Assembly (NCBI GenBank): GCA_050084515.1
Contig: CM114271.1
Coordinates: 2,046,001 to 2,110,000, forward strand
DNA: 64,000 nt
Origin: Blasia pusilla
Taxonomy: Eukaryota
Direction of reading: 5' to 3'
This document shows positions 12,250-45,033 of this stretch, in pieces. The notes beneath the pieces were generated by a model. The model was not told the origin of the DNA and did no database searches. It was given only the letters and a program-made list of their open reading frames with translations. The position numbers were made by a program, and so were the translations under genes. The stretch's first letter is position 1, and each line of letters opens with the position of its first letter.

Positions 12250-15033
12250 TGGGGGTTGGTATTCTGGCAGGAGAGAGGAAGAGAGGAGAGTCTCTCTTAA
12301 AATAAAAAGGGCCAAATCCGCCTCTTCTCTTCAAAACTTTTTGACATATTTGAAATTTTTGTTTGCTTTCAAATTCATGAAATCTTTAGAAGAGAGTAGG
12401 TAGTGGTCCACATTCGGGCCTAAAGAAACCTCCTTTTTCCAGGGGGCGAAAAACAAGCAGACATCATAAGATCACTATAAACATTTTTCCATCACTTTCC
12501 ATGTGAGCCTAAGTTTCTTCACATTGCCTGTCTTAGTCTACAGTAAGCTGTGCCCAGGGGTATTTTTGTTGGAGGACCATTGGCAAATAATTTGACTAGA
12601 AGTAGCAATCTCATCTCAATGAAATGTTCAAATAAAGAGTCTAACGATAGTCTCAACAGACTGCGGTGCTTTTCAAGGTTTAACTTCTCAGAATATTTGG
12701 TTGACATTATGGATTGACATCTCTTCTTGCAAAAGAAAGGCACAAGGAAATGCATGTAAATGATTGTTGACTCTTCTTGTAGAAAGCATCAATACTCATC
12801 ATACATTATGGAAAACCATTGGCAACACAGTACCAAAATGAGAATTGTTGAGCTTCCCCCATTCCTAAGTGTCTCTGAAGTGTTAATGTGTCATGAGACC
12901 TCAACCGGATGCGCATTGGGTACGATGCCAACCTCTCTTTTTGCAGGGATTGTTGCCTGCATCATGGCTTCCCTTGAATTACCCCATAATGAATGGTGTC
13001 TGCTAAAGACCAACTTTGTGAAATGTGAACACACGAGACGATAATTGTACCAAAATATTGTTAGCTATCTGGAGTAAAGAGGAATTGATGTCCCTTCATT
13101 CAGATCCTAAATCTGAGAAATCGAGAAGCTGTACCCCTCCCAACCCGTCGGAATTTTAGAGGTTGCAACTCTTGCAACCCGTCGGAATCAGATGGCTTGC
13201 ACCCCTTGCAAGCAAGCTCACCATAACAAAGGAAAGATTTTCAGAAGTGATTCAATTCCACCCTGCACCCACAAAAATCCAACAGGTTGGCAATCCGACA
13301 AGTAGTAGGAATCCAGCACGTCTTAGAGAAGAAAAGAAGCCTACGACTGGTTTGACGATACTAGGGGAACGAACCAAAAGTGAAGAAGCTCACCACAATA
13401 CCTCAGAATTTGGTCTCATAGGGAAAGAGTCAGATCACTCAAGCAGCTAACCTGTCAAAATCCGACAACTTGCTTGGAAATGGTTAAAAAGTTGCAATGT
13501 TCAAAAAGTGAAAAGTTGCAACACGTCGGAATCAGACAGCTTGCCTGGAAATGGTTAAAAAGTTGCAGTGTTCAAAAAGTGAAAAGTTGCAACCCGTCGG
13601 AATCAGACGGGTTGCAAAATAAACATTTTGAATAGCTAGACGAACACAATCGACAAGTCAAAAATATATATTCAACTAACTTTTACAAACACCATTATCG
13701 TTTGAAAAAATCTTGTCCTTTATTACATCCGAAGGAAGCTCGGAAATGTACATTTGATCTAGTCTGTGATTTCTTCAGCCTCGTCATCTATAAATTTACT
13801 CCTAACTCTCCTAGGTTTCTGTACAAAAGGAATGTCATGGGATACAAGTGGCTCCTCTGGCCGATTGTAGACGGGGATAAAAAATGTTGGCGAATTCGAG
13901 AGCCTTGGCCCTCCCCTAGGTACACCATAACGGTCCCATGTAACCATATTTGAGTCCCACTGCCTTCCTTGGCAGTATTCTTGTACGCTCTGCAAGGTGA
14001 CACCCATCCAATATCAATATGTGCTCCGTCCTTGGAAACACCATCATGACAATCTGACAGGTCGTAGGAATCCAACACGTCTTAGAGAAGAGAAGAAGCC
14101 TATGACTTGTTTGACAATACTAGGGGAAGGAGCCAAAGTGAAGAAGCCCGCCAGAATGCCTCTAAAGTTGGACTAACAGGGAAAGAGTCCGATCACTCAC
14201 GCAGCCAATATGTCAAAATCGGACATGTTGCTTGGAAGTGGTTAAAAAGGTGCAGTGGTCAAAAAGTGAAAAGTTGCAACCCGTGGGAATCGGACAAGTT
14301 GCAAAATAAATTGTCGGAGTACATAGACGATAACAATCGACAAGACCAAAAAAGATATTCAGCAAAATTTTACAAACACCATCATCGCTCGAAAAAATCT
14401 TGTCCTTTATTACATCCGAAGGAAGCTCGGAATTGTACATTTGATATATTCTATGAATTCTTTTGCCTCGTCATCAAATAAATCCCTACTCCAAAACGCT
14501 GCAGTCAAGCTAGGTCCGTGAGTTCTTTGAACTCACTCGTCATCGTCCGAGAGCTCCTCCTGAATTACTGTCGGCCTTGCCCTCCCAATTTTTGGAATCG
14601 TGGGAAGTGACGATGGTGTCACTACCAATGGTGGGTCTGGAACCAGAGCTCTTGGCCTTGGAGGAGAGTTGTACGCCCCAACTAGCTTGTCGTAATCTGC
14701 CTTTGCCTCTTTGCAAAGGTCAAACAGTTTATGCCTTCCCTCAAGGCAAAGAATGTTCCTGCCACTATGCCATGCGCCTCTGATACTCGCCCCTTGAAAG
14801 GCCCACTAAGTCGAACACCAAGTCACCCGGCCTTGAGCACAGCTCGATGAGCGTTTGCATCAGGGCTGGCAACTTTTCCCTTCCTCCAAGTAAGGGGGTA
14901 CTGTCTTGCATGTAAATTCCGGGGGGTGGGAGGGATTGTATAAACTATCTAAGCTGTACCCATCGGAGCATGGATCCACTGGATCCAGGATCTTAAATAC
15001 TTGGAAGTTGTGCTCGGGCCGAACAAAGCGTAA
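12250..15033 (-). mobile_element. Mutator-like element copy A, right arm (terminus to last exon of the MTase-like gene)
   Basis: Reverse complement of 25747-27953; terminus (T)GGGGGTTGGTATTCTGGCAGGAGAG also seen at 40545; flanked by CCCTCATAA (12241-12249). Confidence 0.85.
14533..15030 (-). pseudogene. Last exon of ParB/amino-methyltransferase-like gene, copy A
   Basis: Hand translation REKLPALMQTLIELCSRPGDLVFDLVGLSRASIRGAWHSGRNILCLE resembles the KP..LI..S.PGD.VLD...GR....E C-terminal block of beta-class N4/N6 MTases. Confidence 0.75.
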
Positions 15034-18000
15034 TGCGAACATGCTCCGAACTTCCCCCGTCTACGAGTCTGAAACCGGCACTTGTAAGATTGTCCACTTT
15101 GTCTTGAGTGCGGTTCGTACCTATGGCGATGGGCCAAATCGTGGGGGTATTCCCCGGAGCTCCAATGGCAGCCGGATAAGACTTCCGGAAAGCGCAAGAT
15201 TCATTTGGGCAGAAGAAGTACTTCAATTGATCCCCGGTCCTTGTGAAACAATCAAAGGTTTTGAGTCCCCAAAACCCAGGCAGTGGTCATCCAGTGCTTG
15301 TACAGTTCTTATTTAGGAAAGTGCCGCATGCTCTCCTAATTCCATCAGATCCTGCCCTGCAGGTGGGTTCACGTCCTGGGTTGCTCCGAGATATATGCCA
15401 CCATTTTAGGTTGCAATCCACCTCCATTACCGGAATCCCATATTGTTGAACCACCCTAGTGACCGGATGTTGCGAACTTCCAACAACGGAGGGCTTTTGA
15501 AATAAGACATTCACTGATTTTGAAGAAGGGTCTCCATCACGGATTTGGGACGGTTTCGGGGTCCCCGAATACCTGGGCGGCATAATTTCCTCATCCAAAT
15601 CAATCACCGGATTTGTTCCTCGATGCTGCCTCTTCACCTGTCTGAAGTCAAGATACTTATCTGGTCTCCACGAGTCTCGCTCGGACTGCTCTACCACCAT
15701 CTGAATGGGACGTCTTGAAACCCGCCCATGAATATCCCCACCAATGTGTATGTCTTGCTCGAGGGGAGTTCCAGCTACGCACCGGTTGAAGGCTTCCACA
15801 TACATTTTTCATCACTCGATCTCACAGCCACCCTGATATAGAGCTCGTAGATCGACGGCCCCCTTCCTTTTGTTATGCCTTTTGTGAGGAAGATATGAGA
15901 CGCTGCAGACTGTAGCATTGCTCTTGCTTGGTCTTGTTGGCATGCCTCCACAAGTGAAATTCGTTGGCATGCTTGTGACGACCTCCAGGAGGAATGAACA
16001 CTTTCTGCTCCACTTGTGTTGGGGCAGAGGGCATTTTCATGAATGTTCAATCCCTGCAACGATGGAAATGTTAGAAGGGAACGAAAATAACTCAGGAGTA
16101 AAAAATATAAGCTACATGTCGGAACCAGACGGGTTGCAAGCCCAAGGCATCCCATGAACGACTCTGCAACCCGTCGGGTCCCGACGTGTTGCAACCTTAA
16201 ACCCACCTACTGCAACCCGTCGGAACCAGACTGGTTGCAAGCCCAAGGCATCCCATGAACGACTTTGCGACCCGTCAGGTCCCGACGTGTTGCAAACTTA
16301 AACCCACCTACTACAACCGATCGGAACTAGACGGGTTGCAAGGCCGAAGCATCCCATGAACGACTTTGCGACCCGTCGGGTCTCGACGTGTTGCAACCGT
16401 AAACCCACCTACTGCAACCCGTCGGATTCAGACGGGTTGCAAGGCCGAGGCATCCCATGAACGACTCTACAACCCGTCGGGTCCCGACGTGTTGCAACCC
16501 TAAACCCACCTACTACAACCTGTCGGATTCAGACGGGTTGCAAGAACCTATGGCCACTCTGGAAGATCCAAGTGCAAGTCCTCCAAAACCCATCCGGGTC
16601 AAACTATTTGCAGGCCTTGTATACATGCAACTTGCATACTTGTCTATGGGTTGCACCAAAATTCTGGATGCAACCCGTCGGTTTTCGTCGGGTTGCACAC
16701 TCGGGCAACCCGTCGCATCCGACAGCTTGATTGGTTTCTTCGGTTTGAAATTGCTATAGTTCCCACGCTTTTCAACTTGAGCTGCAACTTTACAAACAAT
16801 TCTCAGCGTGAGCTTGACAAGACCAAATAGTGAACTCACCTGCCGCATGAAGTTTCCACATTGTCTCATACGTACAGTCCACCAACTCAACCAAGAGCAC
16901 AACTCTTTGTACTTCCCCTCAATCGCATGCTTCCTCCACCACCCATGAAGTTCTTCTTGGCATTCCATGGCATGCTTCAAGGTTTTGTTGTCCTTGTAGC
17001 GTTGGAGTAGAGTGACATGCTCTGTCCTCTTATTCTCCTTGATGCAAGATTTGGTGTACCGGGTCACGGACTGTTGCCAATGGAAAGCATCCGACCTTTC
17101 CCTCTCCGGTTGAACCTCTCCACCCCAAAACACTTCCGAGATAGCAATTCACCCAGGTTGTGCATTGTCCGCCATGAACCCATAAATTTCCGGAGGTGGC
17201 CTTTTTTTTCCTTCACCACCTCCAATAAGAGTAACCAGCACATCTTCAAACTGCCAACGTCTTCTGCCTTTACTTCACACACAAATATAGTTTTGAGTCC
17301 CTTCTCCACATGGTCATAAACGTGAGCACCCATCGTCAACCATCCGTTCAGTACTCTGTAGCAAATATCAAAGCTTACCCAACTGCCGTAAAGATCTTCC
17401 CCTTCCCTCATTCGATCTATAAGATCGAGGCCACTCGACGGACCTATGGTTGACATTTTGAAGACATAGGCCCTAAATCCCTCGCCTCCTTGGCCCATGA
17501 ACTGCCATCTCTCAATGAATGGAAATCTGGACTTGGCCTTGATTCTGGCGATGGCATCCATTTCGGCCGTCTTTCCATCCAGAACTCGTATTTGACGCAG
17601 CAAATTTCGGAAGCATTCAGGATCAGGGAGAAATGCAAGATTTTCCCAAAGTTGTTTCTCCTCAACCGTCGTGATCTCGCCCTGTCCAAAGATTCCAAGC
17701 AATTGTTCACAAATTTGTGATGCCATTGTGAGCTTGATCACTCAGGGCTTTGAACCCGGAGAGTTTCTGTAGACCTCGGCAACTTTCTTCGCCACATCCT
17801 CCTTGATGTGTCTCTGAATTGCATCGATCACAGGATGAGTGTGGGAGCCAACATGAACTTCCGGCCTTGTGTACTTTGACGTGGAGCCCAAGTTGTGGAC
17901 AATGAAAAATATGTATGCAGGACACGCTCCCACGCAAAACTGCGATGCGTGACAATGAGGACATCGAAGGCCTCCCGGCGGTATGGTGGCACCAACCTCG

Positions 18001-18850
18001 TAAGGAGTTTCTGCATTTTGGGGGGGAATTGGGACGTATTGACTCGCCCGTTGCCCTCTAGATACGGGCATGCTGGACTTCTACACTCCAAGGCTCCGAC
18101 GCATTGGCGGCGGGAGACAATCCAAGGACCATCTCGAATTGAAGCACTAGTCCGTTGAAGCCTGCACCATCGCTGACAATCAGACTTTCTGTCCATACCC
18201 TTCAGGCGTCCTCCATCTTTCTTTTGAGCAGGAGCAGCAAGTGGAGGCAACTCAAAAATGCAATTACCATCATACGTGGGCGGCAGCTCATCGACAAGAA
18301 TGTGCTTGAACATTTTCAAGGCCAAAGATGAAAGCAAACTATTGCCTGATACTCGCAAGAGGAACGAGTAGGCGAACAGAGGGCCCGGTTGGTGTACGAC
18401 AGATCCACTGAAGTTGATAACATCCGGAATCTCTTCAGGAAGAACAACATTGTTACGAGCATGTGAAGTTGGAGTCGAAGCCGGATCTACTGAGCTAGGA
18501 GTTGCAAACGTAGAGCTTGGAGCACTAGGAAATTCTCGACCGTCTACTTGGGAAACATATGAATTCAGGGGCAGGCCGTAAACTCTGTATTGACCATTTG
18601 CTAGAGGTAGGAGATTCCATACTTTACGGTTTGCAATCACTAGTTGGATTGTCTCACCTATTATGTCCTCCGTACCGTCCACCCTAACATCCTTGGATAC
18701 AAAGATGGTTCCAATTTGGAAAAGAAATCGAACAGAGAGAAAATTTTCATCCACTGCTATGAAAGACTCAAGAGCTTGCGGCCGAACGATTTCTGATTGA
18801 GGAAGGGCCGCTAGATGACTGCCACAAGTGAGCTTCACATAATTATCCAT
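15031..18850 (-). pseudogene. MULE-type DDE transposase with N-terminal GCM/WRKY-like Zn finger, copy B (exons 18850-16840 and 16053-15031; SWIM end deleted)
   Basis: RRQCVGALECRSPAC..CPHC..C..HVGSHTHP; D1 WVSFDICY; D2 GFMADNA..AIREVF; DAFHW; E in NTSGAESVHS; intron CAG|GTGAGT..TTGCAG; frameshifts and stop. Confidence 0.8.
16117..16543. repeat. Tandem array of ~4 x 101-bp units in the transposase intron, two palindromes per unit
   Basis: GGAACCAGACGGGTTGCAAG-type motif recurs at 16121, 16222, 16323, 16424, 16525. Confidence 0.9.
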
Positions 18851-19154
18851 TCCCAAAAATTTTGTATGGGAGGAGGGTGAGAATGAGAATGAGAATCGGA
18901 TTGAGAATCGGAATGAGAATGAGAATGAGAATGAGAATTTTTAATTTATAGTGAATAGGAAATCAGATACTCTTGATAGAATTTTACTGACAAGATGAAG
19001 TTCGGTAGGTGAAATTTTCTGACACAATGGATTCAATTCTGTTGCAATCTGTTACAAGATTTGGGAAGCAGAGACGTGGGTTGCGAAGCACACTTCATTT
19101 CGTTGGAACCCGTCGGAGTCCTGGTAACTCAACTATTAACCCAAGCTAAGCAAA

Positions 19155-19722
19155 GCCTGCAACCCATCGGCTTCGGACAGGTTGCACGCTTCTGCCTTAC
19201 CTTGAAACGCAAACATGATCAAAGCTGGCAACCCGTCGCTCTCCGACAAGTTGATCGGATACCGCGCCTTCTTGCCCGAAGATGGCGGAGGCTTGTAACC
19301 CGTCGGCATCAGACGGGTTGCCCAATTATCTCACGGTGTAACACTTACATGAAGGAAGCATGCAAACCGTCTGTTCCCGACGAGTTCGCGGGTGCCGCAC
19401 CTTCTTGCCCAAAGACGGCAAGGCGTGCAACCCGTCGCCCTCCGACGGGTTGCGCAAGGGCCTTGCCTTGTTTCGCTTACATGAAGGAAGCATGCAACCT
19501 GTTGGCCTCCGACAAGTTGCGTGGGAAGCCCGTGTTGTTAACCCTTGATGAGGGAAGCGTGCAACCCAACGGTCTCCGACGGGTTGCGCGGGTACGTTCG
19601 GTTCTTGTCCGAAGACGGTGGAGGCACTCAACCTGTCGGTCTCCGATGGGTTGCTCGCGCACCTCGCGTTATCGTCCCAGGACGGCGGAGGCACGCAACC
19701 TGTCGGACTCCGACGGGTTGCC
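19155..19722. repeat. Cluster of GCAACCCGTCGG-N3-CCGACGGGTTGC palindromes in the intergenic spacer
   Basis: About nine degenerate copies; a homologous cluster lies at 35405-36190. Confidence 0.85.
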
Positions 19723-19781
19723 ATTTTTCACGTCCAGACTTCCGTAACGGCCAGCACGTCGTTGTTGGAAGGTCAACGCGA

Positions 19782-19818
19782 CCCAACGGTCAGCCCAACG
19801 GCTAGAAAAGTATAAATA
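19782..19818 (+). promoter_or_regulatory. Putative promoter: two CCAACGG (MSA-like) motifs followed by TATAAATA
   Basis: CCCAACGGTCAGCCCAACGGCTAGAAAAGTATAAATA, conserved at 36250-36286. Confidence 0.55.
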
Positions 19819-21289
19819 GGGAAGAAATTGCTCATTTCCGGTTTCTCATTTTGCGATCTCCATCGCTCTCCCGCGCAGCAGGTGATCAGATACCAAGGGG
19901 CGCTTCACACGGCGAGTCATCGCGAGACGATACGAGCGAACGATCGTGAGACGGTTTGACCAAACGATCGCGAGACAATTCGAGCTACCCATCAAGGCAA
20001 CTCATCTCGATATCAGCAAGGCCACTGATCAAGCGATTCATCATGGACATAGGTGGAGGAATTTTTAGGAAAAATGACGAGGAAAAAAGCTCAAGCAAAC
20101 AAGTCTGGGAGCTTCACTCCCAAGTCCATTAGGACTCCTGCGTCACCATCTCCAGGGCCTCGTTCGGCAAATGAGATAAGGCAGCAAGAAATCAAGGAGC
20201 GAGAAAGGGAAGCGAAGATGCACAACTAGGAGGTTCTTGCGAAACGTGTACAAGAGGCGCTCGATAAACAGAACGCAGAGGCTGAGATGTCGTAGGCCTT
20301 GAAGAAAAGAGTCGCCGACAAAAAGCGAGAAAAGAAGCGTCTGGACGCGTCGGTGAGGAGAGCAGAATTGGCTAAAGCGAGGAGGGAAAAAGAAATAGCC
20401 ATTGACGACAGCGCTACCCATCAACCGAAAGTTTTGAGATGCGGGAAATGTCTCCGATGAAGTCCGGGGACACAATCAATATAGCGGAAACGGCCGGTGT
20501 TAAAATTCATGGACGATGAGATCATGAGGACCGCTAGTGTGGAGATGGTGGACATTGCTGAAGAAGCAAGAGAGCGGTCATCCTCCTCTCCAAGCCCGGC
20601 GGAAGAAATCAACCTCTATCGGATCGACGAGTTTCCAATGGACTTGCCAGCTGCTGTCTTAGAGCTGTTGGCTGGTCAAGAAACCCACCCAATCTTTGAG
20701 CGGGTAAGAGAGGATCTGGATTTTTTGAATTATGTGAAGGCCCATCTTGCAATTTATTGGCAATTCAGTGTAGCTTACTGATCTTGTCCCGGTTGTGACA
20801 GGTGGTAAAGCAGATGGCACTGATGGAAGGCCACAACGCCCCGAGAATTCCACTCTGCCGATTGCGGACAATGGAGTACGGCCGCGAAATTCAGTCTAAC
20901 GAGGATATTGCAAAGCTCAAACAATCGAAGGTGACAGCATCCTACGTCGACAACTTCCCTCCTCTCTATGTTCAGACTTACAATGACCATGGAACCCAAG
21001 CGCTGGTTACAGAGGAGGACTTGGAAAAGCTTGAGATATTCTGGAGGATGAGAGATCAAGAATTCAGAAGGCAAGTAGAGGGGACGGAATTCAGCTGGAT
21101 GAGGAATCTGCATTTCTTCATCTGGGATGGAAATCACAGGTTCATGGCATGGACAAAGTTTGCAGAGGAGCGCCCAAACTCCTTGGAGGCACATTTTTGC
21201 GTGAAGGCAGTGGTCCTTCATCCATACCCTCATCACATGGCGACGGTGGAGATGGCCATGCATGCCATGAACACGTAAGTTTCTTCTTG

Positions 21290-21985
21290 CTGCAAACCAT
21301 CGGACTCCGACAAGTTGTTTGAGTCGCCACTATTTTTGGGATGTTGTTGGCCAAATGCAACTCGTCGGACTCCAACGAGTTGCTCGATTGATGAATGGGT
21401 TAGGATGTTTTTGGCCGAAAGCAACTCGTCGGAGTCCGACGAGTTGCTCGACAGGCCGCATTCTTTGGATGTATATTGAAGAAAGCAACTCATCGGAGTC
21501 CGATGAGTTGCTCGACTCGCCGCCTTTTTTGGATGTTTTTTGAAGAAAGCAACTCGTCGGACTCCGACAAGTTGCTCGACTCGCCGCCTTTTTTGGATGT
21601 TTTTTGAAGAAAGCAACTCGTCGGAGTACGACGAGTTGTTCGACTGACCACAGGTTTAGTATGTTTTTGGCCTAAAGCAACTCGTCGGAGTCCGACGGGT
21701 TGCTTGACTCGAAGCTATTTTTGGAGGTTTTTTTATGTTTTTGGCCGAAAGAAACTCGTCGGAGTCCGACAGATTGCATTCGGAAGTTAGAAGCTACCTT
21801 TTTCGCGTCAAATTGCAGCTTTCATTGCAATTGCGCAACTTGTCGGACTGTGACGGGTTGTTATGTTCACTTTTGATACGGACTATCTGACAACCCGTCA
21901 GACTCCGACGGGTTGCATAATTTAGCTCGTTGCTAGAATCCGACCTTGAGCTGTGACGACCTGTCGGAGTCCGACGGGTTGCAGG
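21290..21985. repeat. Intronic array with 64-bp period built on the palindrome variant GCAACTCGTCGG-N3-CCGACGAGTTGC
   Basis: Copies start at 21357, 21421, 21485, 21549, 21613, 21677, plus looser flanking copies. Confidence 0.9.
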
Positions 21986-22804
21986 AACCCATGTACCTTA
22001 CAAAATTTCTTATATTGAGTTTGGATGTGCAGGATTGTATCGGAGGGGAATGTCACCCACCACTGGATCCAGGATTGCGATCGGGTGAAGAAGGTGCTTA
22101 CGACGCACCCGGCAGAGTACAAGGGATTCTTGGGCGATGCCCTGGTAAATCAGATGCTTGCAAAGGGTGCACAGATCAAAAAGAAGACTTGGGCAAATAA
22201 GTTTATTTCCCAAGATGCAGCCATCACAATCCTTTGCTGGTCAAAGATACAGGCCGTGAAGAAGAACGCTGCATTGGAGCTGGAGCGGAGGGAGAAAGTA
22301 TCTGGGTGTGAGCGCGCAAAATTCATCCAAGCTGCAGTATGTGCAGCCACGAAGTACACGGCAAGCAAGATGCAGCGCTACATCGCCATTCTCAACCCCG
22401 AACTTGGTCCGAATTTTTACAAGGAGCTGAAGGCGATTATCAAGAGCCAGCGAAAAAGGGATGATGATCCGCAAGGTCGGATTGGGGAGAAAGTGTCCCT
22501 CGATCGCGTGCATCGATTTGCGTTGTCTGGAATAAGCGAGTTTAGGAGAATCCGACTGATGAAAATCAGTCTCGAGGGCATAGAGGCCCAGAAGAGGGCG
22601 GCATACCATCCTCCGGGTGTGTCTGATCCAGTGATCTCCCACTAGCTCCGCGAATGGTCGTTCTGGGATGCGTTGCGGGTTATCGGGAAGTCCATGTTGG
22701 ACGGTCTCCAAGTGGAGCTCAAAAGAATAGAGCCCATTCCGGATGAAGCAAACCTGGAAAGTGATGGAGATTTTGAACTTTGGCTCGATGACATCCGGGA
22801 CAAG

Positions 22805-24014
22805 TGTGATACCCACAATTTTGTACTCTTGAAGAATATATCTTTTTATTCAACAAAGACTCTTGTATATTATGATTTTTATTATGATTATTTATTATTA
22901 TGAAGAAGACTAAGTAAATCACAAAGCTCCTGGGACAAGGCAGAGAGATGGAAGATCAAGGATTTGCCTTAGAGGAGAGGAAACCGCAATAACGAAGTCT
23001 CAAGACTCAGAACGAAGCTTAACGAAGCTTAACGAAGCTCTGTATACGAAGTGCTTCGCTACATAACGAAGCATCACGAAGAAAAGAAGAACAAAGTACT
23101 TCGCTCTTTAACGAAGCACGAAGTACGAAGCACAGGAAATAAGAACGAAGCATGGAGTACTTCGTCCTCTTGAAGTCCAACGAAGCGAAGATAAGAAGGA
23201 TTGTGATTTCAAGAGACACATGTTAAAACAGTTAGACTAGGAAAGGGTACGACCCTTTGTATCAAATTGGTAGTTAGAACAATTTTGTACTGCGGATTCA
23301 CAGGGATCATAGGAAGAGATCAGAGAACCATAGATCTAGGTAGTTAGAAACAGTGAAGAGACACTAGCTTCCTCAAGAACGTTTCGAATCTTAGGATCAC
23401 TTCCACTCCAGCGAATATTTAAGAAGCAAAGCAGAAGCCATTATCATCCTTCTCTTACGAAGTCCTTATGTTGTAGGAATGGTCCGAGCAAGAGAGTAGT
23501 ACCCTCTCGAGCTTGTATACACTTTGAAGCTTTCTCGTTCTTGATGGAGTAGTAAAGCAGTCATTCATTCATTCAGATGTGCGATGCTTATGTCTGAGTA
23601 TTCTTTTTGGGTTTGCAGAATGAGGAGTGAATCAGGCGAACCTTTCTCATCAGTGAAATAATCAACCTGAGTTGTAGGAAATCTGTTTGACAGAGAGTAA
23701 TCTGCCAAGACGGATTGAGTTCCGAAAGTAGGAGAAGCCAGCTTTTGTGTTGAGATCTCTGTGAGATTTCTTGATTTCGAGAGGAAAATCTACCTGAACA
23801 TGCTGTCAATTCCACTAGAGAGAATCGAGAAAAGATCCTTGGTACCAAGAAAGATCAGAAGATATTGAAAAGACATTAAATATAACTCACACACCTTTAA
23901 ATACAACTATAACCACAGAATTGTAATTCCGAACTCTCTTTTCATCAAGCAATGATCCTCTTGGGGATTGAACGTACTAAATCGACTATAAAAAAGAAAC
24001 ACTTGTATATTACA
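22805..24014. mobile_element. Solo LTR (1210 bp) inserted in exon 3 of the ParB/MTase-like gene
   Basis: TGTGAT...ATTACA ends; TSD ACAAG at 22800-22804 and 24015-24019; empty site GGACAAGCCC in copy A at 39031. Confidence 0.93.
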
Positions 24015-30074: not shown

Positions 30075-31033
30075 TGTCGTATGCCTACTCTCCTTGAGCG
30101 TCAATCTTAGTGTTGCAGAAGCGTACGTTCAGTAGGTCATGCTCTCATTGCCAACTTGCACCCAAACGCACTCATGTTAGTCTAGCTTTGGGTCAAGCGG
30201 CCTCCCAACCCACCGAGTGCTCAACTCAGCATCTCTCATTCCTAGGTTCCCAACACGGGCAAGTCTTCCGAGACTTGGGACAGACTTTTTGGTTAGTCCA
30301 GGTACCTGAAATGGCGTTTGCACGCCTAACAGTCCCAACTTTCCAACAGACCTCGCATGAGCCCTAATCAAGACTCAATGATATGAGTCACAAGTTGGAA
30401 TCCAATCAGGATCTCTGAAATGCCTCTATTAAACTTGGTTTGGGTTTTGAATCCCAACACCAAACTCTTGATCTGTTCCGTGCCCTTGAGTTGCCCCACG
30501 GCGCCCAAAGTGGGGTTCAAGTCCCAAGCACTCTTGGAGACCTTCCCCCTTACTTGTACTTCTACGAAACTCAGGGGTCCCCCCATCTTTGGAAAAGACC
30601 ACCCGAGCCCCTCTTTTTTGCCCTCAACCCGACTCCTCTTACATTTTGTTTTGGCCCATTTCTCAACCGTTGCGCAAGAGTTTGCAAAGATCTTTCGTGC
30701 GTTGAAACCGACTTGGCATAATATTTCCAACGCTACCTTACTTGTGCCAAACACATCTTGGGACTCAAATTTATGGTCAAAACTACAATTGGAAACTCCC
30801 AACACTGCCCGCGTCTCAAGTTCGGTTTTCACCCCTTGGCCGCGTCTCATCCAAGATTTGATTCCTCTCAAGTCCAAGTTCCGCATTTGGTTTCGGTTTC
30901 TTGGTTGCGACCATAAACGCATGAAACACTCAAAATGCGCATCTCGCCCTTATGTTGCCTTAACTCCAAAGCGCAAACCATCCTAGCGTGAGCTCGCTAG
31001 AGTTTTCGCTTGGTGCTTGTTTGGTTATGAGGG
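30075..31033 (-). repeat. Remainder of the chromovirus 3' LTR, inverted
   Basis: On the minus strand it begins with TSD CCCTCATAA and ends ...ATACGACA, the inverted match to the LTR start TGTCGT at 12233. Confidence 0.8.
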
Positions 31034-31447
31034 GAGGTGCGGTAAGAGGAGAGGAAGAGAGGAGAGAGGAGAGAGGAAACTACCTTCAACCCAAAGAGAT
31101 AATTTTTTTTAAGAGAGTTTCCTTTGATTTGAAGAGAGTTTCCGTTGGGTTGAAGAGAGGAAACTTTTTGTGTGATTTTTTTTGCACGTTTCTTCTCAAT
31201 TCTTAAGCACTCCCACAAATTTTTTCCCCTCTTCCACATTTTAGCAACCCATGTGAGTCCGACGAGTTGCAAATTGCACAAAGTTTAGAAAACTGAAAAA
31301 TCAGTGGAATCATAAGTGTGGAACCAATCACTTTTTCTATCCAAGGTCTGGAAAAAATCTCTCATTTGCCTTGGGCTGAATAGAGTTCAAGCTCAAAGTG
31401 AAGGTTTTGGAAAATGAAAGTACGATATAAAACCTCATTTTGCATCC

Positions 31448-34400
31448 TCAAAGTGGTTTGTTTAGAATACTTCGCACTTCTTTGAGGGACAGAATTGGTT
31501 GGTGGATTCCTACTCCTACCTCCGACTCTCTTAAAATTACAAGCAACATATAGTACATGTACTTACAAGGGAAATACCTTTTGCCACTTGTCTCTCTTTG
31601 GACAAAGTCATCACATTAACATGTGGGAAAGCAACAGATGTGCACCACATACACCCTTGTGACACTTGAATTTACAATGTTGTTCCTGACCCAATACATC
31701 CTTCCGATTCCATTGCCACAAGGGACATCTTTTGTGGCGATGATCTCCATTTTTGCCTCTCGAGCTGATGCAATTCGCTTTGCTCTCTCCACCGTTAGCC
31801 TACACATTGTGTTTCTCTTCACCCCATTTCTAGACTCAAACAAAAATAGTGGATTGAGATCATCCACCTTCTCCGAGTACATGTTGACATCAATCTTGGG
31901 TTGGATACGAAATGCAAAGGTCTCTCTAATGCGAACATGCTTTGAACTTCCTCCGTTTACCAGTCTGAAACCGGCACTTGTAAGATTTTCCACTTCGTCT
32001 TGAGTGCAATTTGTACCTACTGCAATGGGCCAAATCGTGGGGGTATTCCCCGGAGCTCCAATGGCAGCCAGATAAGACTTCTGGAAAGCGCGAGTTTCAT
32101 TTGGGCAGAAGAAGTACTTCAATTGATCCCCGTTCCTCATGAAAGAATCAAAGGTTTTGAGTCCCCAAAACCCAGGCAGTGGTCGTACAGTCCTTGTATT
32201 GTTCTTATTTAGGAAAGTGCCGCATGCTCTCCTAATACCATCAGATCCTGCCCTGCAAGTGGGTCCACGTCTAGGGTTCCTCTGAGATATATGCCACCGT
32301 TTCAGGTTGCAATCCACCTCCATGACCGGAATCCCATATTGTTGAACCACCCCAGCGATCAGATGTTGCGAACTTCCAGCAATAGAGGGCTTTTGAAATA
32401 AAACATTCGCTGATTTTGGAGAAGTTACTCCATTACAGATTTGGGAGCAATCCGGGGTCCCCAAATACCTGGGCGGCGTAATTTCCTCATCCAAATCAAT
32501 CACCGGAATCATTCCTCGATGCTGCCTCTTCACTTGCATGAAGTCAAGATACTTATCTGGTCTCCATGAGTCTCGCTCGGACTGCTCTACCACCATCTGT
32601 ATAGGACGTCTAGAAACGTATCCACAAATATTCCCACCAATATGTATATCTTGCTCGAGGGGAGTTCCTGCTACGCACCGGTTAAAGGCTTCCACATAGA
32701 GTTTCTCATCACCAGATCTCACAGCTGCCCTGACATAGAGCTCGTAGATTAAAGGCCCCCTTCCTTTTGTTATGCCTTTTGTGAGGAAGATATGGGATGC
32801 TGCAGACTGTAGCATTGCTCTTGCTTGGTCTTGTTGGCATGCCTCCACAAGTGAAATTCTTTGGCATGCTTGTGACGACCTCAAGGAGGAATGAACACTT
32901 TTCGCTCCACTTGTGTTGGGGCAGAGGGCATTTTCATGAATATTCAATCCCTGCAAGAACCCCAATGTGAGAAGGGAACAAAAATAACTCAAAAGTCAAA
33001 GAAATAAGTTCCCTGTCAGAACCAGACGGGTTGCAAGGCCGAGGCATCCCATGAACGACTCTGCGACCTGTCGGTTCCTGACGTGTTGCAACACCCAAGA
33101 ACCACAAGTTGGTTGGTTTTTTCGGTTTGAAATCCCTATAGTGCCCACGCTTCTCAACTTTAGTTGCAACTCTTCAAACAATTTTCAGCGTGAGCTTGAC
33201 GAGACAAATTAGTGAACTTACCTCCCGCATGAAGTTTCCCCATTGTCTCATTCGTATAGTCCACCAACTCAGCCAAGAGCATAACTCTTTGTACTTCCCC
33301 TCAATCGCATGTTTCCTCCACCACCCATGAAGTTCTTCTTGGCATTCCATGATCTGTTTCAAGGTTTTGCTGTCCTTGCAGCGTTGGAGTAGAGTGACAT
33401 GCTCTGTCCTCTTATTCTCCTTGATGCAAGATTTGGTGTACCGGGTCACACACTGTTGCCAATGGAAAACATCCGACCTTTCCCTCTCCGGTTGAACCTC
33501 TCCACTCCATAACATTTCCCTGATAGCAATCCACCTAAGTTGTGCATTGTCCGCCATGAACCCATAAATTTCCGGAGGTGGCCTTTTGTTTTCCTTCACC
33601 ACCTCCAATAACCCTAACCAGCACATCTTCAAACTGCCAACGTCATCTGCTTTTACTTCACAGAAAAATATAGTTTTGAGTCCCTTCTCCACATGGTCAT
33701 AAACGTGAGCACCCATTGTCAACCATGCATTTTGCACTCTGAAGCAAATATCAAAGCTTACCCAGCTGCCGTAAAGATCTTCCCCTTCCCTCATTCGATC
33801 TATAAGATCGAGGCCACTCGACACACCTGTCGTTGATATTTTTAAGACGTAGGCCCTGGATCGTTTGCCTCATTGGCCCATGAACTTCCATCTCTAAATG
33901 AATGGAGTTGGCCTTGATTCTGGCAATGGAATCCATTTCGGCCGTATTTCCATCTTGTACCCGTATTTGATGCAGCAAATTCCGAAAGCATTCAGGATCA
34001 GCGAGAAATGTGAGATTTTCCTTGAGTTGTTTCTCCTCAGTAGCCGTGATCTCGCCTTGTCCAGGGATTCCAAGCAGTTGTTCACAAATTTGTGATGTTG
34101 TTGTTAACTTGACCACTTTGGGCTTTGAACGCGGAGAGTTCTGTAGACCTCGGCCACTTTCTTCGCCACATCTCTGAATTGCATCGGTCACAGGATGAGT
34201 GTGAGAGCCAACATGAAATGCCAGCCTTATGTACTCTGACGTGGAAACCCAAGTCGTGTACAATGAAAAATATGTATGCAGGACACGCTCCAACACAGAA
34301 AGGGGATGCCTGACAATGAGGACATCAATGGCCTCCCGGTGGTATGGTGGCACAGACCTCATATGGAGTTTCTGCATTCTTGGGGGGAACTTGCGACGTA

Positions 34401-35212
34401 TTGACTCGCTCGTTGCGGTCTAGATACGGGCATGCTGGACTTCTACACTCTAAGGCTCCAACGCATTGGCGGCGGGAGACAATCCAAGGACCATCTAGAA
34501 TTGAAGCACTAGTCCGTTGAAGCTTGCACCATCGATGAAAATCAGACTTTCTGTCCATACCCTTCAAGCGTCCTCCATCTATCTTTTGAGCAGGAGCAGC
34601 AAGTGGAGGCAACTCAAAAATGCAATTACCATCGTACGTGGGCGGCAACTCGTCGACAAGAATGTGCTTGAACATTTTCAAGGCGAGAGACGACAACAAA
34701 CTATTGCTTGATACTCGCAAGAGGAATGAGTAGGCGGAAAGAGGGCCCGGTTGGTGTCCGACAGATCCATTGAGGTTGACAACAGCCGGAATGTCTTCAG
34801 GAAGTACAACATTGTAATGAACGTGTGAAGTTGGATTTGATGCCGGATCTACTAAGCTAGGAGTTGCAAATGTAGAGCTTGGTGCGCTAGGAAATTCTCG
34901 ACCGTCTACCTCGGAAACTAAGGAATTCAGAGGCAAGCCGTAAACTCTATATTGACCATTTGCTAGAGGTAGGAGATTCCATACTTTACGGTCTCCAATC
35001 ACTGGCTGGATTTTCTCACCTATTATGTCCTCCGTACCATCCACCCTAACATCCTTGGACATAAAGATTGTTCCAATTTGGAGAAGAAATTGAACTGAGA
35101 GAAATTTTTCATCCATTGGTATGAAAGACTCACGAGCTTGCGGTCGAACGATTTCTGATTGAGGAAGGGCTGCTAGATGACTGCCACAAGTGAGCTTCAC
35201 ATAATTATCCAT
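31448..35212 (-). pseudogene. GCM-like/MULE DDE/SWIM transposase, copy A (exons 35212-33222 and 32950-31448)
   Basis: SFDICF, FMADNA, DVFHW; third catalytic residue E>K (GAKSVH); SWIM-like CFPTC*CDDF..PCKY; frameshifts. Confidence 0.82.
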
Positions 35213-36573
35213 TCCCAAAATATTCCACCGGGAGGAGACCGGAAATAAGAATGAGGATAAGAATGGGAATGGGAATGGGTATGAGAATGAGAATGAGAAT
35301 GTTTAATTTATAGTGAATAGGGACTCAAATTCTCCTGTTAGAATTTGACTGACAAGATGAAGTTTGGTAGGTGAGAATGTCTGACATCATGTATTCAATT
35401 TTTTTGCAACCTGTCGGAGTCCAATGGGTTGCAGAAATTGGGAATCACAGACGTGGGTTGCGAAGCACCCAGTTCCATTTTTTGTTTCGGTGTCCCAATG
35501 TAAGTTGGAACCTGTCGGAGTCCGTTGGAACCCGTCAGAGTCCCTTCTTGCCGACCAATGGTCTTTCGAGTCGATTTTGCTAGCATCAAACACCAGACAT
35601 CGCTTGCATTTGCTAAGGCAACCAATCGTTGGGGACTGTTACGCGATTGTCCAACTCAGGGTAGACCTTGTGACCCGTCGTATTGTAAGGGGTTGCCTCG
35701 GACTATGCGTTGTTGCATTGTTACCCGAGGGATAGAAAAGCGTGCAACCTGTCGGTAACCGACGGGTTGCTCAGGTTCCTAGCCTATTACCCCAAGATGA
35801 GGGAAGCGTGCAACCCCTCGGCCTCCGACGAGTTGCGCAGGTACCCCGCCTTGTTATCCCAAGATGAGGGAAGCGTGCAACCCGTCGGCCTCCGACAGGT
35901 TGCGCAAGTGCCTCACCTTGTAATGCTTCCATGAAGGAACCGTGCAACCCATCGGCCTCCGCCGAGTTGCGCAGGTACCCCACCTTGTTATCCCAAGACG
36001 AGGGACGCGTGCAACCCCCCGGTCTCCGACGGGTTGTGCGGGTACCTTGCGTTCTTGCCCGAAGACGGCGGAGGCGCGTAACCTATCGGTCTCCGACGGG
36101 TTTCCAGGATAGCTCGGCTTTTTAACCAGAGGAGGACAGATGCCTGCAACCCGCGAGAAGCGTGCAACCCGTCGGAGCCGTCGGGTTGGTGGTTTTCACG
36201 TCCACACTTCCATGATGGCCGACACGTCGCCGTCGAAACAACGGTGCGATCCAACGGTCAGCCCAACGGCTCGAAAAGTATAAATAGGCGAGGGTTCGCT
36301 CATTTCCGGTTTTTCGTTTCGTGATCTCGATTGCCCTTCCGCGCAGCTGCTGACCAGATACCAAGGGGCGCTTTATACGGCGACTCATCGCAAGACGATT
36401 CGAGCGAACGATCGCGAGACTATTCGAGCGACTCATCAAGGCGACTCATCATGACATCAGCAAGACGACTCATCAAGGCGACTCATCGTGACATCAACAA
36501 GACAACTCATCAAGGCGACTCATCGTGTACAAAAAGTAACTTTGTTGTCGAGGAGGAGGCATTTTCGGAAACA

Positions 36574-39500
36574 ATGACGAGGAAAAAATCTCAAGCAAGC
36601 AAGGTTGGGAGCTTCACTCCCAAATCCATGAGGACTCCTGCATCACCATCTCCAGGGCCTCGTTCGGCCAATGAGATAAGGCAACATGAGATCGAGGAGC
36701 GGGAAAGGGAAGCGGATATGCACAGGCAAGAGCTTCTTGCAAAACGTGTTATGGAGGCGCTCGAAAAACAGAACGCAGAGGCTGAGGCGTTGCAAGCCTT
36801 GAAGAAAAGGATCGCCGAGGAATAGCGTGAAAAGAAGCGTTGGTGAGGAGAACAAAATTGGCAAAAGCTTGAAGGGAAAAAGCGATTGCCATTGAAGAAA
36901 GCCCGCCCCGTCCAACCGAAAGTGTGGAGATGCAGGAAATGTCCCCGATGAAGTTTGGGGACACAATCAATATAAAATTGGATGAGGAAACGGCAGAAGT
37001 TCAAGTGACGAACGATGAGGTCATGAGGACCACCAACGTGGAGATGGTGGACATCTCTGAAGAAGCAGGATAGCAGTATTCCTTGTCTTTGAGCCCGGCG
37101 GAAGAAATCGACCTCTATTGGATCAACGAGTTTCCAGTGGACTTGCCAACTGCTGTCCCAGAGTAGTTGGCGGGCCATGACACCGACCCAATCTTTGAGC
37201 GGGTAAGAAACGATCTTGGATCTTCAAGTTATGTGAAGGCCCATGTTTCAATTCATTGGCAATTCAGTGTAGTTTATTGAATTTGTCCCCGTTGTGACAG
37301 TATTAAAGCAGATGGCACTAATGGAGGGCCAGAACGCCCCGAGAATTCCACTCTTCCAATTTCGGACAATGGAGTACGTCCGCGAAATTCAGTCTGACGA
37401 GGATATTGAGAAGCTGAAACAGTCGGCAGCGACAACATCCTATATCAACAGCTTCCCTCCATTCTATGTTCAGCATTACGATCAACATGGAATCCAAGCG
37501 TTGGTGACGGAGGAGGACTTAGAAGCGCTCGACACATTCTAGAGGATGAGAGATCAGGAATTCAGAAGAGCGATTGAGGGGACGGAATTCAGCTGGATGC
37601 GGAACCTCTATTTCTTCATTTGGGATGGAAACCACATGTTCATGGCGTGGACCTAGTTTGCAGAGGAGCGCCAAAATTCATTGGAGGCGCATTTTTGCGT
37701 GAAGGCAGTTGTGCTAAATCCATACCCTCATCACATGGCGACGGTGGAAATGGCCATGCATGCCATGAACACGTAAGTTTCCTCTTCCTTTTTTTTTTAT
37801 TGCTGCAAACCGTCTGACTCTGACAAGTTGTTTAACTAGTGGTAACAAAACATCGGATGCCTAAAAGCAACTCGTCGGAGTACGACGAGTTGCTTGACCG
37901 GCCACTATTTTTAGGATGTTTTTGGCCGAAAGCAACTCGTCGGACTCCAACGGGTTGCATTCGCCGCCACGGGTAGGTGATCGGAGTAGGGGAGCTTGAT
38001 TTTTAGCATCAAATTGTTGCTTTACTTGAAATTGCGCAACCAGTTGGACTCCGACATGTTCAGAGAGTGGTTTCAACCCGTCGGAGTCCGAGGAATTGTA
38101 ACCAGGAAATTACAAATCTGAATGCAATCCGTGGGACTCTGATAGGTTGCAATATTTAGCTCTTAGGTACCATTTCGACCATAAGGTGTAGCGACCTGTC
38201 GGAGTACGACATGTTGCAGGAACCGATGTAGCTTGCAAAAATTCTTATAGTGTGTTTGGATGTGCAGGATTGTATATGAGGGGAACGTCACCCACCACTG
38301 GATCCAGGATTGCGACCGGGTGAAGAAAGTGCTAGCGACGCACTCGGCAGAGTACAAGGGGTTCTTGGGCGATGCTCTTGTAAATGAGATGCTGGCGAAG
38401 GGGGCTCAAATAAAAAAAAAGACTTGGGCAAATACATTTATTTCCTAAGATGCAACCGTGACAATCCTTTGCTGGTCGAAGATACAGGCCGCCAAGAAGA
38501 GCGCTTCATTGGAGCTGGAGCGGAGGGAGAATGTGTCTGTGTCTGAGCATGCTAAGTTCATCCAAGCTTCAGTATCTGCAGCTACGAAGTACACTGCAAG
38601 CAAGATGCAACGCTACATCGCCATTCTCAACCCCGAACTTGGCCTCGATTTCTACAAGGAGCTGAAGGCGATAATCAAGTGCCAGTCGAAGAGGGATGAA
38701 GATCCGCAAGGTTGGATTGGGGAGAAAGTGTCTCTCGACCGCGTCCATAGATTTGCCTTGTCTGGAATTTTGGAATTTAGGAGAATCCGACTATGAAAAC
38801 CAGTCTCGAGGGCAGAGAGGCCCAAAAGAGGGCGGCACACCATCCTCCGGGTGTCTTTGATCCAGTGATCTCCCACTGGCTCCGTGAATGGTCATTCTGG
38901 GACGCGTTGCGGCTTCTCGGAAGTCCATGCTCGTGGGTCTCCAAGCGGAGCTGAAAAAAATAGAGCCTATTCTGGAGGAAGCAAACCTGGAGAGTGCTGA
39001 AGATTTTAAACTTTGGCTTGATGACATCCGGGACAAGCCCATGAAAAACCCAGGCTTCAGGATGATGTTCAAGGATCACATCCTCCCTCAAGCAGACTTG
39101 GATGAAGAAATAGAGGCGAAGAAAAGGGATTTCGCAAAGAAGAAGCGAGATCTTCAAGAGCAGGCGGCCGATGCATCTCGACAAAGAGCTGCCCAACGGA
39201 TGGTGTTCAGGTACCTCATCCATTGTAAGCATGCAGGTACCTGGCAAAAAGTACCGGTAGCCTGCAAATTGTGGGCTTCTCCGCCTCATGGAGAGGCATT
39301 TTCTATGTACGACATGGAGATGGCACAGGGCATGTCCGATAGGGAGGTTGACAATTGCCCAATCTGGTTGGACTTCAACGACCCTGAGGACATAACCGAG
39401 AAAAATCTACGCCTGGTCTATGATGCAGTGGCCGTAGGTAGGGACGACATCCCGAATTTTGTGCAGCCTGAAGACTTTTTTGAAGGAGATGCGGAGGAGC

Positions 39501-40308
39501 AAGCCATCGAGACAGCGGAGTTGGTGTCCAAGGTCGTCACCGCCAAGGACAAATCTACAACAGGTGTGAAAGCAAAGGCAAGGGGATCGAAGAATTTTGA
39601 GGCCGAGTCTTCCAAAAAAGAGGCTGAGAATTCAGACGAGAGGCGGAATCGTCCAGGTGAGCGGGGAGAGAGGGCCGGACGAGGTCCTCCGCCAAGAAAA
39701 CTCCAACAGAGTCTGAGATAATAGAGATCCCAACAAGCCGACCGCAGACTCGAGAAAAGCGGAAGCGAGAGGCGCCACGTTTGTCCCAGGGAGCAGACCA
39801 GGATGTGGAATACACTCCATCATCCTTGGGCAAACATAGAGAAACAATGACCCGGACAAGCATCATCATTCACTGCACGAATCTTCTGGATGAGTTGCAA
39901 AGTTTCAGTTCCCAAGAGTTGACACCCGCCATCGACAAATTAACAATGTTGGGATGGAAGCTTCAACGAAATGGGCACGCTCCCTACACGGTCCATGGGG
40001 AGGTCGAGGAGGTGGCCATGGATCTCCTCGTCGCTGATTTTCCCTCTGGGTTGCGCTTGTGGGATGAAAATCCGTCTGACAATGTCCCAGACTGGAATGT
40101 CCCTCTTACCTGTGACCAGATCCCGCTCATGTTTTCCTTTGCAGACGCTTATCTCAGTGACAGGGGCTATTTCTTGGTCTTAACTGGAGGAAGCAAGGAC
40201 GAGCTCTTCAACCTGCAGTGCGTGAAGAGGTCGCTGACGTGGAGGACGGTGCAATCGTGGGTCATCAAGAACGAGTTCCCACTCCGATCGGCGACGAGTC
40301 AAATCTGG
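36574..40308 (+). pseudogene. ParB-like + amino-MTase-like gene, copy A, exons 1-3
   Basis: MTRKKSQ start; IWDGNHMFMAW; MDLLVADFPSG..FADAYLSDRGYFLV; donor TGG|GTAAGG at 40308; many stops. Confidence 0.72.
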
Positions 40309-40544
40309 GTAAGGGCTCTAAATCCATATACAATTTGTCCTGCTCCGACGGTTTGCATCTCTGCATGCAACCCGTCGGATTGTCTAAGCTGGTCACTACG
40401 GTGTTGCAATCCGTCTGAAAGCGATGGGTTGCAAATTTACCACAAGTCTCTATTGGGTGAATGCAACCCGTCGGAACCGGACGGGTTGCAAGTGCTTATG
40501 CTTTTCCTTGTGTTTCTAGAATGATGCAACCCGTCTGAAAGCAA

Positions 40545-40739
40545 CGGGGGCTGGTATTCTGGCAGGAGAGAGTAAGAGAGGAGAGGAAGAGAGGAAGAGA
40601 GGAGAGTCTCTCTTAAAAAAAAAGGGCCAAATCCGCCTCCTCTCTTCAAAACTTTTTGACATATTTGAAATTTTTATTTGTTTTCAAATCCATGAAATCT
40701 TTAGAAGAGAGTAGGTAGTGGTCCACATTTGGCCCTAAA
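40545..40739 (-). mobile_element. Terminal ~195 bp of the Mutator-like right end (inferred displaced end of copy B)
   Basis: Matches 12250-12424, which is the part missing from the arm that stops at 27953. Confidence 0.85.
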
Positions 40740-43442: not shown

Positions 43443-43560
<118 letters not shown>

Positions 43561-44785: not shown

Positions 44786-44942
<157 letters not shown>

Positions 44943-45033
44943 AACTTTCTTTGTCATTTTTCATACGATTCGTTCCTCATTGGAATATGGTGCAACAGTA
45001 TGGGATACCAACACCAAACAAAGGGAGAGGCTT

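Follow-up and report, generated by a model that had tools for sequence, protein, structure and literature searches.

A 64,000-nucleotide stretch of the Blasia pusilla contig CM114271.1 (positions 2,046,001 to 2,110,000; hereafter the window) holds three copies, A, B and C, of one repeat family. We think it probable that this is a cut-and-paste transposon family of about 12 kb, in which a SWIM-type DDE transposase is accompanied by a divergent accessory gene, gene 2, encoding a non-catalytic protein of the ParB-methylase type. The gene 2 product would consist of an N-terminal ParB/Srx-like module with a DGNHR motif, a helical middle, and a C-terminal part corresponding to the motif-IV half of an N6/N4 amino-methyltransferase minus its catalytic loop. 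Such a protein would no longer methylate, and may instead act as a sequence-specific DNA-binding factor for the 12-3-12 palindromes of the element, thereby controlling its transcription or chromatin state, or helping to gather its ends.

The three related copies named in the original prediction are indeed present, and self-BLAST finds them 80-91% alike. Copy B 15031-25287 matches copy A 31927-40320 at 89-90% in the transposase part and 80-87% in the gene 2 part; B matches C 60414-63991 at 89-90% identity; A 31046-35262 matches C 59534-63998 at 90-91%. Of the original interpretation, a DNA transposon of roughly 12 kb with a DDE/SWIM-type transposase, a divergent accessory gene and palindromic sites of its own is supported.

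15031-27951: copy B, with both genes, short of about 0.9 kb at its transposase end and of the end piece X (see below) at the other; delimited by self-BLAST and loose ends of DNA reads
31034-40544: copy A, left end as in C, both genes, cut about 0.2 kb past gene 2
59506-64000: copy C, beginning at its left end and cut by the window end, showing only the transposase pseudogene

The transposase and its superfamily

All three transposase genes are broken: compared with the single-open reading frame (ORF) homologue P0142, each has two frameshifts and 2-5 in-frame stops.

15065-18940, minus strand: transposase pseudogene of B, from ORF pieces and tblastx to relatives; P0142 aligns by tblastn in three frames with two stops
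16003-16005, minus strand: catalytic E codon of B, kept in B alone among the window copies
16101-16700: repeat array in the B transposase intron, 101-bp period, holding palindromes
31460-35302, minus strand: transposase pseudogene of A, E replaced by K; the reading frame is interrupted where the SWIM-type motif begins
59934-63963, minus strand: transposase pseudogene of C, E replaced by K
62466-62468, 62265-62267, 62178-62189 and 60045-60107, minus strand: first D, second D, DxxH and SWIM-type remnant CxC..CxY of C

Among 1.8 billion proteins, a 240-residue piece of copy C found 141 homologues with expectation value (E) ≤1e-3, the best of them 44% identical. Most are ORF fragments ending at one common exon border, and the ten homologue clusters that were looked up included one organism-named protein, from the liverwort Calypogeia fissa. 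An alignment of 13 sequences keeps two aspartates, D48 and D115, unchanged throughout; (C/D)xxH follows them, and Cys/His clusters occupy the N-terminal part. The next exon has the motif N.(S/A)E..H, conserved in all four of the relatives' C-terminal exons examined (E in B, K in A and C), and about 400 residues past it all four have CxC..CxH, which in copy C reads CxC..CxY. The Pfam SWIM model falls at the expected place in one of these four exons, with E 0.03, below the cut-off. In our best explanation the protein is a DDE transposase of large size that combines Cys/His clusters at its N terminus with a predicted D-D-(C/D)xxH-E core and a C-terminal SWIM-type finger. Of the motifs that had been predicted for the two genes, D, D, DxxH, DGNHR and D(L/F)PS are all in the window, whereas the catalytic E is found only in B and SWIM only as the remnant in C.

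The family had also been assigned to Mutator. Judged by signature, Mutator-like is our best guess for the superfamily rather than a demonstrated membership. A DDE triad with (C/D)xxH is not exclusive to Mutator; N..SE..H around the E together with a C-terminal SWIM finger is typical of MuDR-type transposases. A profile alignment (hhalign) to 27 bacterial IS256 ORFs scored 28.8 (P 0.011), with W..L..G, the second D and CxxH in register; controls reached at most 16.2 and DDE_Tnp_1 12.2, an ISL3 control having been left out for want of enough usable ORFs, three of its five being from an unpublished genome. Two results speak against the assignment. Neither Pfam MULE (PF10551) nor Transposase_mut (PF00872) matched any of 19 window pieces, 15 homologues or the four relatives' C-terminal exons, and when one odd row was removed and the IS256 set was re-aligned, the register was unchanged and the score fell to 18.5 (P 0.22). 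With these models unmatched and the IS256 link weak and unstable, the Mutator membership first claimed is not supported.

A serious, if less probable, alternative is that the transposase is not a Mutator relative at all, and belongs either to another DDE superfamily that combines (C/D)xxH with zinc fingers, such as KDZ/Zisupton, or to one without a name. Accessory genes with ParB-like and methylase domains also ride Zisupton elements in the red-algal account (10.1101/2025.02.11.637652), and the same alternative is favoured by the failure of both Pfam models, by the instability of the IS256 alignment and by the roughly 400 residues that separate the E motif from the SWIM-type motif. Yet the Pfam scans of transposase pieces and homologues matched no transposase family of any kind, so that the KDZ model went without a match too (Pfam includes one), and the register-consistent alignment of W..L..G, D and CxxH was obtained with IS256 only. 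The MuDR-typical motifs named above likewise argue for a Mutator-like transposase. Whatever its superfamily, the transposase has no match in scans of Pfam, NCBIfam, PHROG and PADLOC, and pipelines relying on these will miss the family.

Gene 2, its two domains and the palindromes

In A and B the minus-strand transposase is paired with a plus-strand second gene bearing introns, and C shows only the transposase within the window, all as originally described. Gene 2 is internal to the element, is transcribed divergently from the transposase and adjoins inverted-repeat arrays. Its intron borders were placed from ORF breaks and from exon ends common to relatives, not from RNA joints.

20485-25285, plus strand: gene 2 of B, from ORFs, hidden Markov model (HMM) matches, an exon end common to relatives, hhalign, and RNA on the expected strand
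20799-21275, plus strand: ParB-like exon of B, DGNHR at 21126-21140
21333-21982: intron array in gene 2 of B, palindromes with a 64-bp period
22019 onward, plus strand: later exons of B, the middle exons beginning at 22019 and the last large exon spanning 24015-25285
24899-25267, plus strand: methylase-like domain of B, DLPS at 25004-25015
36325-40344, plus strand: gene 2 of A, from ORFs, HMM matches and hhalign
37273-37814, plus strand: ParB-like part of A, frameshifted
39931-40344, plus strand: methylase-like domain of A, DFPS at 40036-40047, with a GTAAG-type donor after the last conserved residues

Sequence searches with the window's own gene 2 pieces found no homologues; these were found only after seeding with metagenome relatives. 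Among 600 pattern matches, the transposase search of metagenome contigs gave 399 confirmed relatives, of which 80 were kept. Weak tblastn matches led to a conserved exon that in the relatives lies on the other strand, upstream of the transposase, carries the motif F.(I/V)WDGNH(R/Q/H)..AW and ends as the window exon 20799-21275 does. An HMM built for this ParB-like part from six seeds matches 10 of the 80 loci (five seeds, two near-duplicates of seeds and three new), and in nine of the ten the gene sits upstream of the transposase, in the opposite orientation. The HMM of the C-terminal domain matches nine of the 80, and a middle stretch, ...P.(F/L)GP.F.K..., is common to the window gene 2 and the relatives. 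Since it is conserved beside the transposase in some distant relatives, gene 2 appears to have accompanied part of this transposase family for a long time and not to be a recent capture.

A profile search with nine sequences of the C-terminal domain brought in 131 further fragments, and the best 120 of these included none with a Pfam domain. Aligned by hhalign to 37 bacterial PF01555 ORFs, the 89-row family scored 34.7 (P 3.5e-4, probability 37.5%, 87 columns), against at most 15.8 for six controls and 15.9 for the top of 30 column shuffles. The alignment lays VDLLVADFPSG onto VDlIfaDPPYn and keeps in order the strand leading into motif IV, the motif, the ...L...G..hh helix-strand and the GF segment. 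The 12 best HMM matches in 90 mixed bacterial ORFs were likewise all to the DPPY region of PF01555 proteins, each at E of at least 0.11, and a language-model atlas offered PF01555 clusters at 0.88 and 0.87, which are leads only. For the likeness to PF01555, the profile support is weak to moderate. The catalytic motif IV, (D/N/S)PP(Y/F/W), is found in 0 of the 72 family rows with letters in that place: the window copies have DFPS and DLPS, the first column is N in 27, D in 18 and E in 8 rows, P is kept in 41, and the aromatic position holds S, R or G. We read the domain as probably derived from a methylase that has lost catalysis. The N4C/N6A methylase-like domain of the original prediction is accordingly retained in so far as it aligns with PF01555 in the correct register, and is qualified by the family-wide absence of the catalytic motif.

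It is very unlikely, in our view, that gene 2 instead encodes a still active DNA N6A/N4C methyltransferase that marks the element's own DNA by means of an unusual catalytic loop. The first residue of the loop and one proline are often kept, as just counted, published algal proteins are predicted to be active in the account given of them (PMC12477816), and the relatives have further exons downstream of the domain that could hold the part binding S-adenosylmethionine (SAM). However, the full motif is missing from every row, with S, R or G for the aromatic residue; no FxGxG SAM-binding motif I is readable in the relatives' next conserved exon; and tblastx over the right arm of B gave no conserved downstream coding piece save one match, in one locus and on the other strand.

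The N-terminal module is ParB-like by motif only. A DGxHR-type motif follows a hydrophobic strand, reading FFIWDGNHRFMAW in the window and F.VWDGNH..AW in relatives. The one Pfam match of this part, a weak one (E 0.028), is to DUF1015, which we take to be akin to ParB. Atlas leads comprise a cluster with ParB_N on 11% of its members and another with DUF3723 on 31%; a literature search for work joining DUF3723 and ParB found none. The ParB label proposed earlier draws on the DGNHR motif, the weak DUF1015 match and the atlas leads, and has a blank profile comparison against it.

Several results weigh against our account of gene 2. The ParB-like profile scored 12.6-14.5 against bacterial ParB_N in hhalign, which is the control level, and the Pfam HMM of PF01555 itself does not match the methylase-like domain. 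AlphaFold (AF2) models were too poor to use, with predicted local distance difference test (pLDDT) values of 35.3 for the ParB-like part and 47.1 for the methylase-like part. No model of Pfam, PHROG, NCBIfam or PADLOC supports MULE, ParB or methylase in any window piece, and the gene 2 and transposase profiles found nothing relevant among sequences of solved structures. Of the 20 loci having at least 6 kb of upstream flank, eight have the ParB-like exon and 12 show neither gene 2 domain at HMM sensitivity. Finally, we purely infer that the gene 2 product binds the palindromes; the transposase could bind them instead.

The likeness to ParB and to amino-methyltransferases might then be due to chance or convergence, gene 2 being a lineage-specific protein of another fold. 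Along with the failed structure predictions, the blank ParB comparison and the missing catalytic motif, this would fit the lack of any match in a family-library scan of 10 gene 2 family members and the modest hhalign probability for PF01555. We nonetheless consider it unlikely: the PF01555 score is twice that of any control, with motif IV, helix-strand and GF.. segment in the right order, and the atlas independently lists both PF01555 clusters and a cluster bearing ParB_N. The two-domain order, the divergent placement and the adjoining inverted-repeat arrays have, moreover, all been described for algal transposons (PMC12477816; 10.1101/2025.02.11.637652).

The element has its own repeated cis sites, as had been claimed. 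A palindrome of 12+3+12 occurs 40 times in the window at ≤3 mismatches, compared with 0 in each of 100 shuffles, and all 40 are inside copies. They recur every 101 bp in the transposase intron, every 67 bp in the intergenic space and every 64 bp in the intron that follows the ParB-like exon, and others are found after gene 2 and in the arms.

19159-19721: intergenic palindrome array of B, 67-bp period, six sites at ≤3 mismatches
35740-36170: intergenic palindrome array of A, 67-bp period

In relatives, palindromes of other sequence cluster in the intergenic region and ahead of the exon for the C-terminal domain; the palindrome arms are of the GCAACCCGTCGG type in the window family and of the CTCCAACT type in relatives. 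Which protein would read these sites is a matter of weighing. The arrays may be binding sites of the transposase, either subterminal or as internal enhancer-like repeats, with gene 2 acting otherwise, and we give this a substantial though minority chance. The palindromes do extend into the subterminal arms, many DNA transposons have subterminal repeats bound by their transposase, and the N-terminal Cys/His clusters are on the transposase. On the other hand, most sites are internal, spread over the common promoter region, the introns of the two genes and the sequence directly after gene 2; the relatives bearing gene 2 have their clusters at matching places with a different sequence; and in the red-algal account such arrays adjoin the ParB-like gene (10.1101/2025.02.11.637652). 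These points lead us to prefer the gene 2 product as the putative palindrome-binding factor.

Ends, abundance and neighbouring elements

The layout proposed originally, in which copy A is split by a nested copy B, is not supported.

12250-12432, plus strand: end piece X (183 bp), GA-rich start, 8-bp linker included; read as the outer terminus of the gene 2 side, inverted here
12433-15033, plus strand: detached, inverted right subterminal arm abutting truncated copy B; two palindrome sites (13174, 13589)
22800-24014: 1.2-kb insertion in copy B, inside gene 2, not in A
25745-27951, plus strand: right subterminal arm of B, palindromes at 26543 and 27149, low-level plus-strand transcription
40545-40739, plus strand: second copy of X, directly adjoined by an unrelated inverted-repeat element at 40740-47878

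A (31034) and C (59506) have a left boundary in common, a G-rich and then GA-rich terminus with unrelated flanks. B lacks the first 0.9 kb of the A/C transposase side and adjoins the inverted arm at 12433-15033, which overall is an inverted copy, at 81-90%, of B's right-hand 2.2 kb, 25745-27951 (13525-15033 is 87.6% identical to the reverse complement of 25745-27239, and 12435-12579 is 90% identical to that of 27807-27951). The two X copies, 12272-12424 and 40588-40739, are 95% identical in the same orientation. DNA reads show how the family continues where the window copies stop. Leftward of 15030, 2028 reads leave B with sequence identical to C 60382-60411, as A and C continue, and B is therefore truncated at 15031. 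Rightward of the arm end at 27951, 1163 reads run into the reverse complement of 12405-12434, so that the arm ends in X in most genomic copies. Because 341 reads join 22799 to 24015, the 1.2 kb between them is an insertion that B has alone or shares with a minority of copies; it is itself high-copy, and its flanks are joined with five shared letters in these reads.

We read 12250-15033 as the detached, inverted right end of the element, consisting of the right terminal region and X, rather than as the left end of A, and the full element as running from an end of the 31034 type to the reverse complement of X, about 12 kb. The window has no intact or complete copy and none with both ends. Its three copies are dead relics, A and B truncated, C cut by the window end and the transposase genes of all three broken, so that the term autonomous does not apply to them. 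The 9-bp target site duplication reported initially could not be recovered. No direct repeat of 8-10 bp (≤1 mismatch) was found among seven left and six right boundaries, each taken ±8 bp, and no clear terminal inverted repeat could be shown in the window copies, the GA-rich termini being only loosely alike in an alignment of ends; both results count against our explanation, but they come from copies none of which has both ends.

One DNA run and three RNA runs were mapped to 14500-28500 with a likeness cut-off of ≥85%. The DNA reads on this interval number 323,539 of 12,895,792 sampled (2.5 in 100); besides the family, the interval takes in the private insertion of B and some 0.5 kb of another repeat. 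By likeness to the interval, 3,410 reads are at ≥99%, 51,085 at 95-99%, 150,595 at 90-95% and 118,449 below 90%. The family is old and very abundant. An extra base beside B's frameshifts stands in most DNA reads (behind 17201, in 2341 of 3561), and since the majority carry it, the common family form is less broken than B.

RNA reads on the interval are few, 709, 830 and 777 per run of 10-12 million each, and the family is best explained as now largely silent. Nearly all of them are <95% alike to B, from which it follows that they come from other copies. Across the transposase most first mates of the RNA pairs map to the plus strand, and across gene 2 and the right arm to the minus strand, which fits two divergent genes provided that the libraries are reverse-stranded, as is usual. 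The best 15 joints by support, mostly joints in DNA reads, included no RNA splice joint. At 20820-20895 and 23670-23744, RNA reads (10-48 per run) match only these 75-nt pieces, with unrelated flanks, those at 20820-20895 being on the strand opposite to gene 2; the pieces are element fragments embedded in other transcripts.

Several other repeats share the window. An ORF piece at 29305-30132 (plus strand) matches the Pfam C-5 cytosine DNA methylase PF00145 (E 6.9e-12) and has a paralogous stretch at 48925-49563. It is inside another high-copy repeat (DNA depth of about 3500 in the adjoining bin 28043-28500) that also shows likeness to a protease at 28577-28822 and, in the second copy, to gag at 47852-48082; this looks like a retroelement carrying a DNA methyltransferase (DNMT) domain. 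In two places the order runs from a two-gene copy through terminal material (the arm in one case, X with another element in the other) to the DNMT-bearing repeat (27954-30042; 47879-49563), and the DNA reads show that most genomic copies of that repeat have different upstream sequence, absent from the window.

The element at 40740-47878 is 7.1 kb long, begins exactly at the end of the second X, and has 1.1-kb inverted arms (80%) and no ORF of at least 200 aa; at 43445-44940, perfect inverted repeats of 113-127 nt shifting by 2 nt reduce to two facing dinucleotide-repeat tracts. Inverted arms of 1.5 kb with 73% identity (50252-51777 and 54281-55807) bound a 5.6-kb unit, near which minus-strand ORFs of 203-443 aa (52891-58795) have no Pfam match. 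At the left, 126-11525 (plus strand) contains pieces of copia-type (gag, RVT_2, integrase) and gypsy-type (RNase H, SH3, chromo) polyproteins, and 2585-3075 and 6668-7116 form a direct repeat of 94-97%, possibly long terminal repeats.

Comparison with known systems

Both En/Spm TnpA and the plasmid proteins KorB/ParB are accessory DNA-binding proteins that act on repeated or palindromic sites of their own element and control expression or synapsis. ParB/KorB on parS-like sites, or TnpA on the En/Spm subterminal repeats, would be the model for gene 2; we use them as working models only and claim no homology. To our knowledge gene 2 has no relationship to mudrB or VANC, the accessory genes known from Mutator. 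The transposase itself resembles MuDR/MULE and IS256 in its D, D, CxxH and E, in its C-terminal SWIM-type finger and in a weak, register-true profile alignment, and differs in having no Pfam match and a long insert between E and SWIM.

Accessory genes for binding or marking an element's own DNA are rare and bear on escape from, or tuning of, host silencing. Those with a ParB-like domain and a methylase have so far been reported in algae, for brown-, red- and green-algal transposons (PMC12477816; 10.1101/2025.02.11.637652). The original prediction held that no known Mutator accessory gene has a ParB/amino-methyltransferase architecture, which is contradicted by the published descriptions of Chondrus Mutator, Plavaka, Zisupton, Sola1 and green-algal cases (10.1101/2025.02.11.637652; PMC12477816). 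For liverworts, mosses, ferns and lycophytes, none of the papers listed by our literature search mentions a ParB-like protein. The window and its roughly 400 metagenome relatives add a lineage in which the repeats on the mapped interval take about 2.5% of the sampled DNA reads. What appears to be new here is that lineage, a transposase clade foreign to the scanned libraries, and an apparent family-wide loss of the catalytic motif. The methylase module looks catalytically dead yet stays conserved, and taken together these features make the family a testable case for a purely DNA-binding role.

A bolder version of this account, which we regard as somewhat unlikely, is that a bacterial-type ParB-methylase was turned into a non-catalytic, ParB/KorB-like reader of the element's own parS-like palindromes, in a lineage reaching the land-plant side, with protein and sites co-evolving between sublineages. 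The land-plant side is suggested because the sole source-named relative protein among those looked up is from a liverwort. Were this true, each sublineage would have a private address system controlling silencing or transposition.

A close published parallel is Sola1-1_Ec32 of Ectocarpus (21.5 kb), described as encoding, opposite the transposase, a 1104-aa protein with ParB-like and N4C/N6A methylase domains, which its authors propose binds and modifies its own element (PMC12477816). Compared by description only, it is, as our family is, a giant DNA transposon that encodes one gene opposite to its transposase; unlike our family, Sola1-1_Ec32 has a Sola1 transposase, a brown-algal host and a predicted active methylase, whereas the window family has lost the tetrapeptide.

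In red-algal Plavaka elements, as reported, PAG2 combines a PF01555 methylase with SET, and PAG3 a ParB-like domain with a 2-oxoglutarate (2OG) oxygenase; these accessory genes are also found on Chondrus Mutator and Zisupton elements (10.1101/2025.02.11.637652). The same account describes tandem inverted-repeat arrays beside the ParB-like gene, whose likeness to ParB was seen only by HHpred, and element copies that are mostly degenerate and weakly expressed (10.1101/2025.02.11.637652). DNA-transposon-borne ParB-like and PF01555-type modules, and inverted-repeat arrays by the ParB-like gene, are thus common to both systems. They differ in host and transposase, and in that the red-algal modules are in two proteins with SET and 2OG domains, whereas the window family would have them in one protein without these.

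Dam-type methylases fused to ParB-HTH are reported in chlorophytes and chytrids, and bacterial ParB-methylase fusions are likely the ultimate source of the eukaryotic forms, as far as that study's description goes (PMC4738411). We found 13 ORFs of about 445-500 aa fusing ParB_N to an N6_N4 methylase in four bacterial genomes; those at loci L245-L263 (genomes G011, G039, G067 and G083) are of 445-498 aa, with at least six in one genome. The window family gave no signal against this near-identical bacterial set (hhalign 12.8), the signal having come from the broader PF01555 set. The bacterial and phage fusions have the domain order of gene 2, but they keep DPPY and are much shorter.

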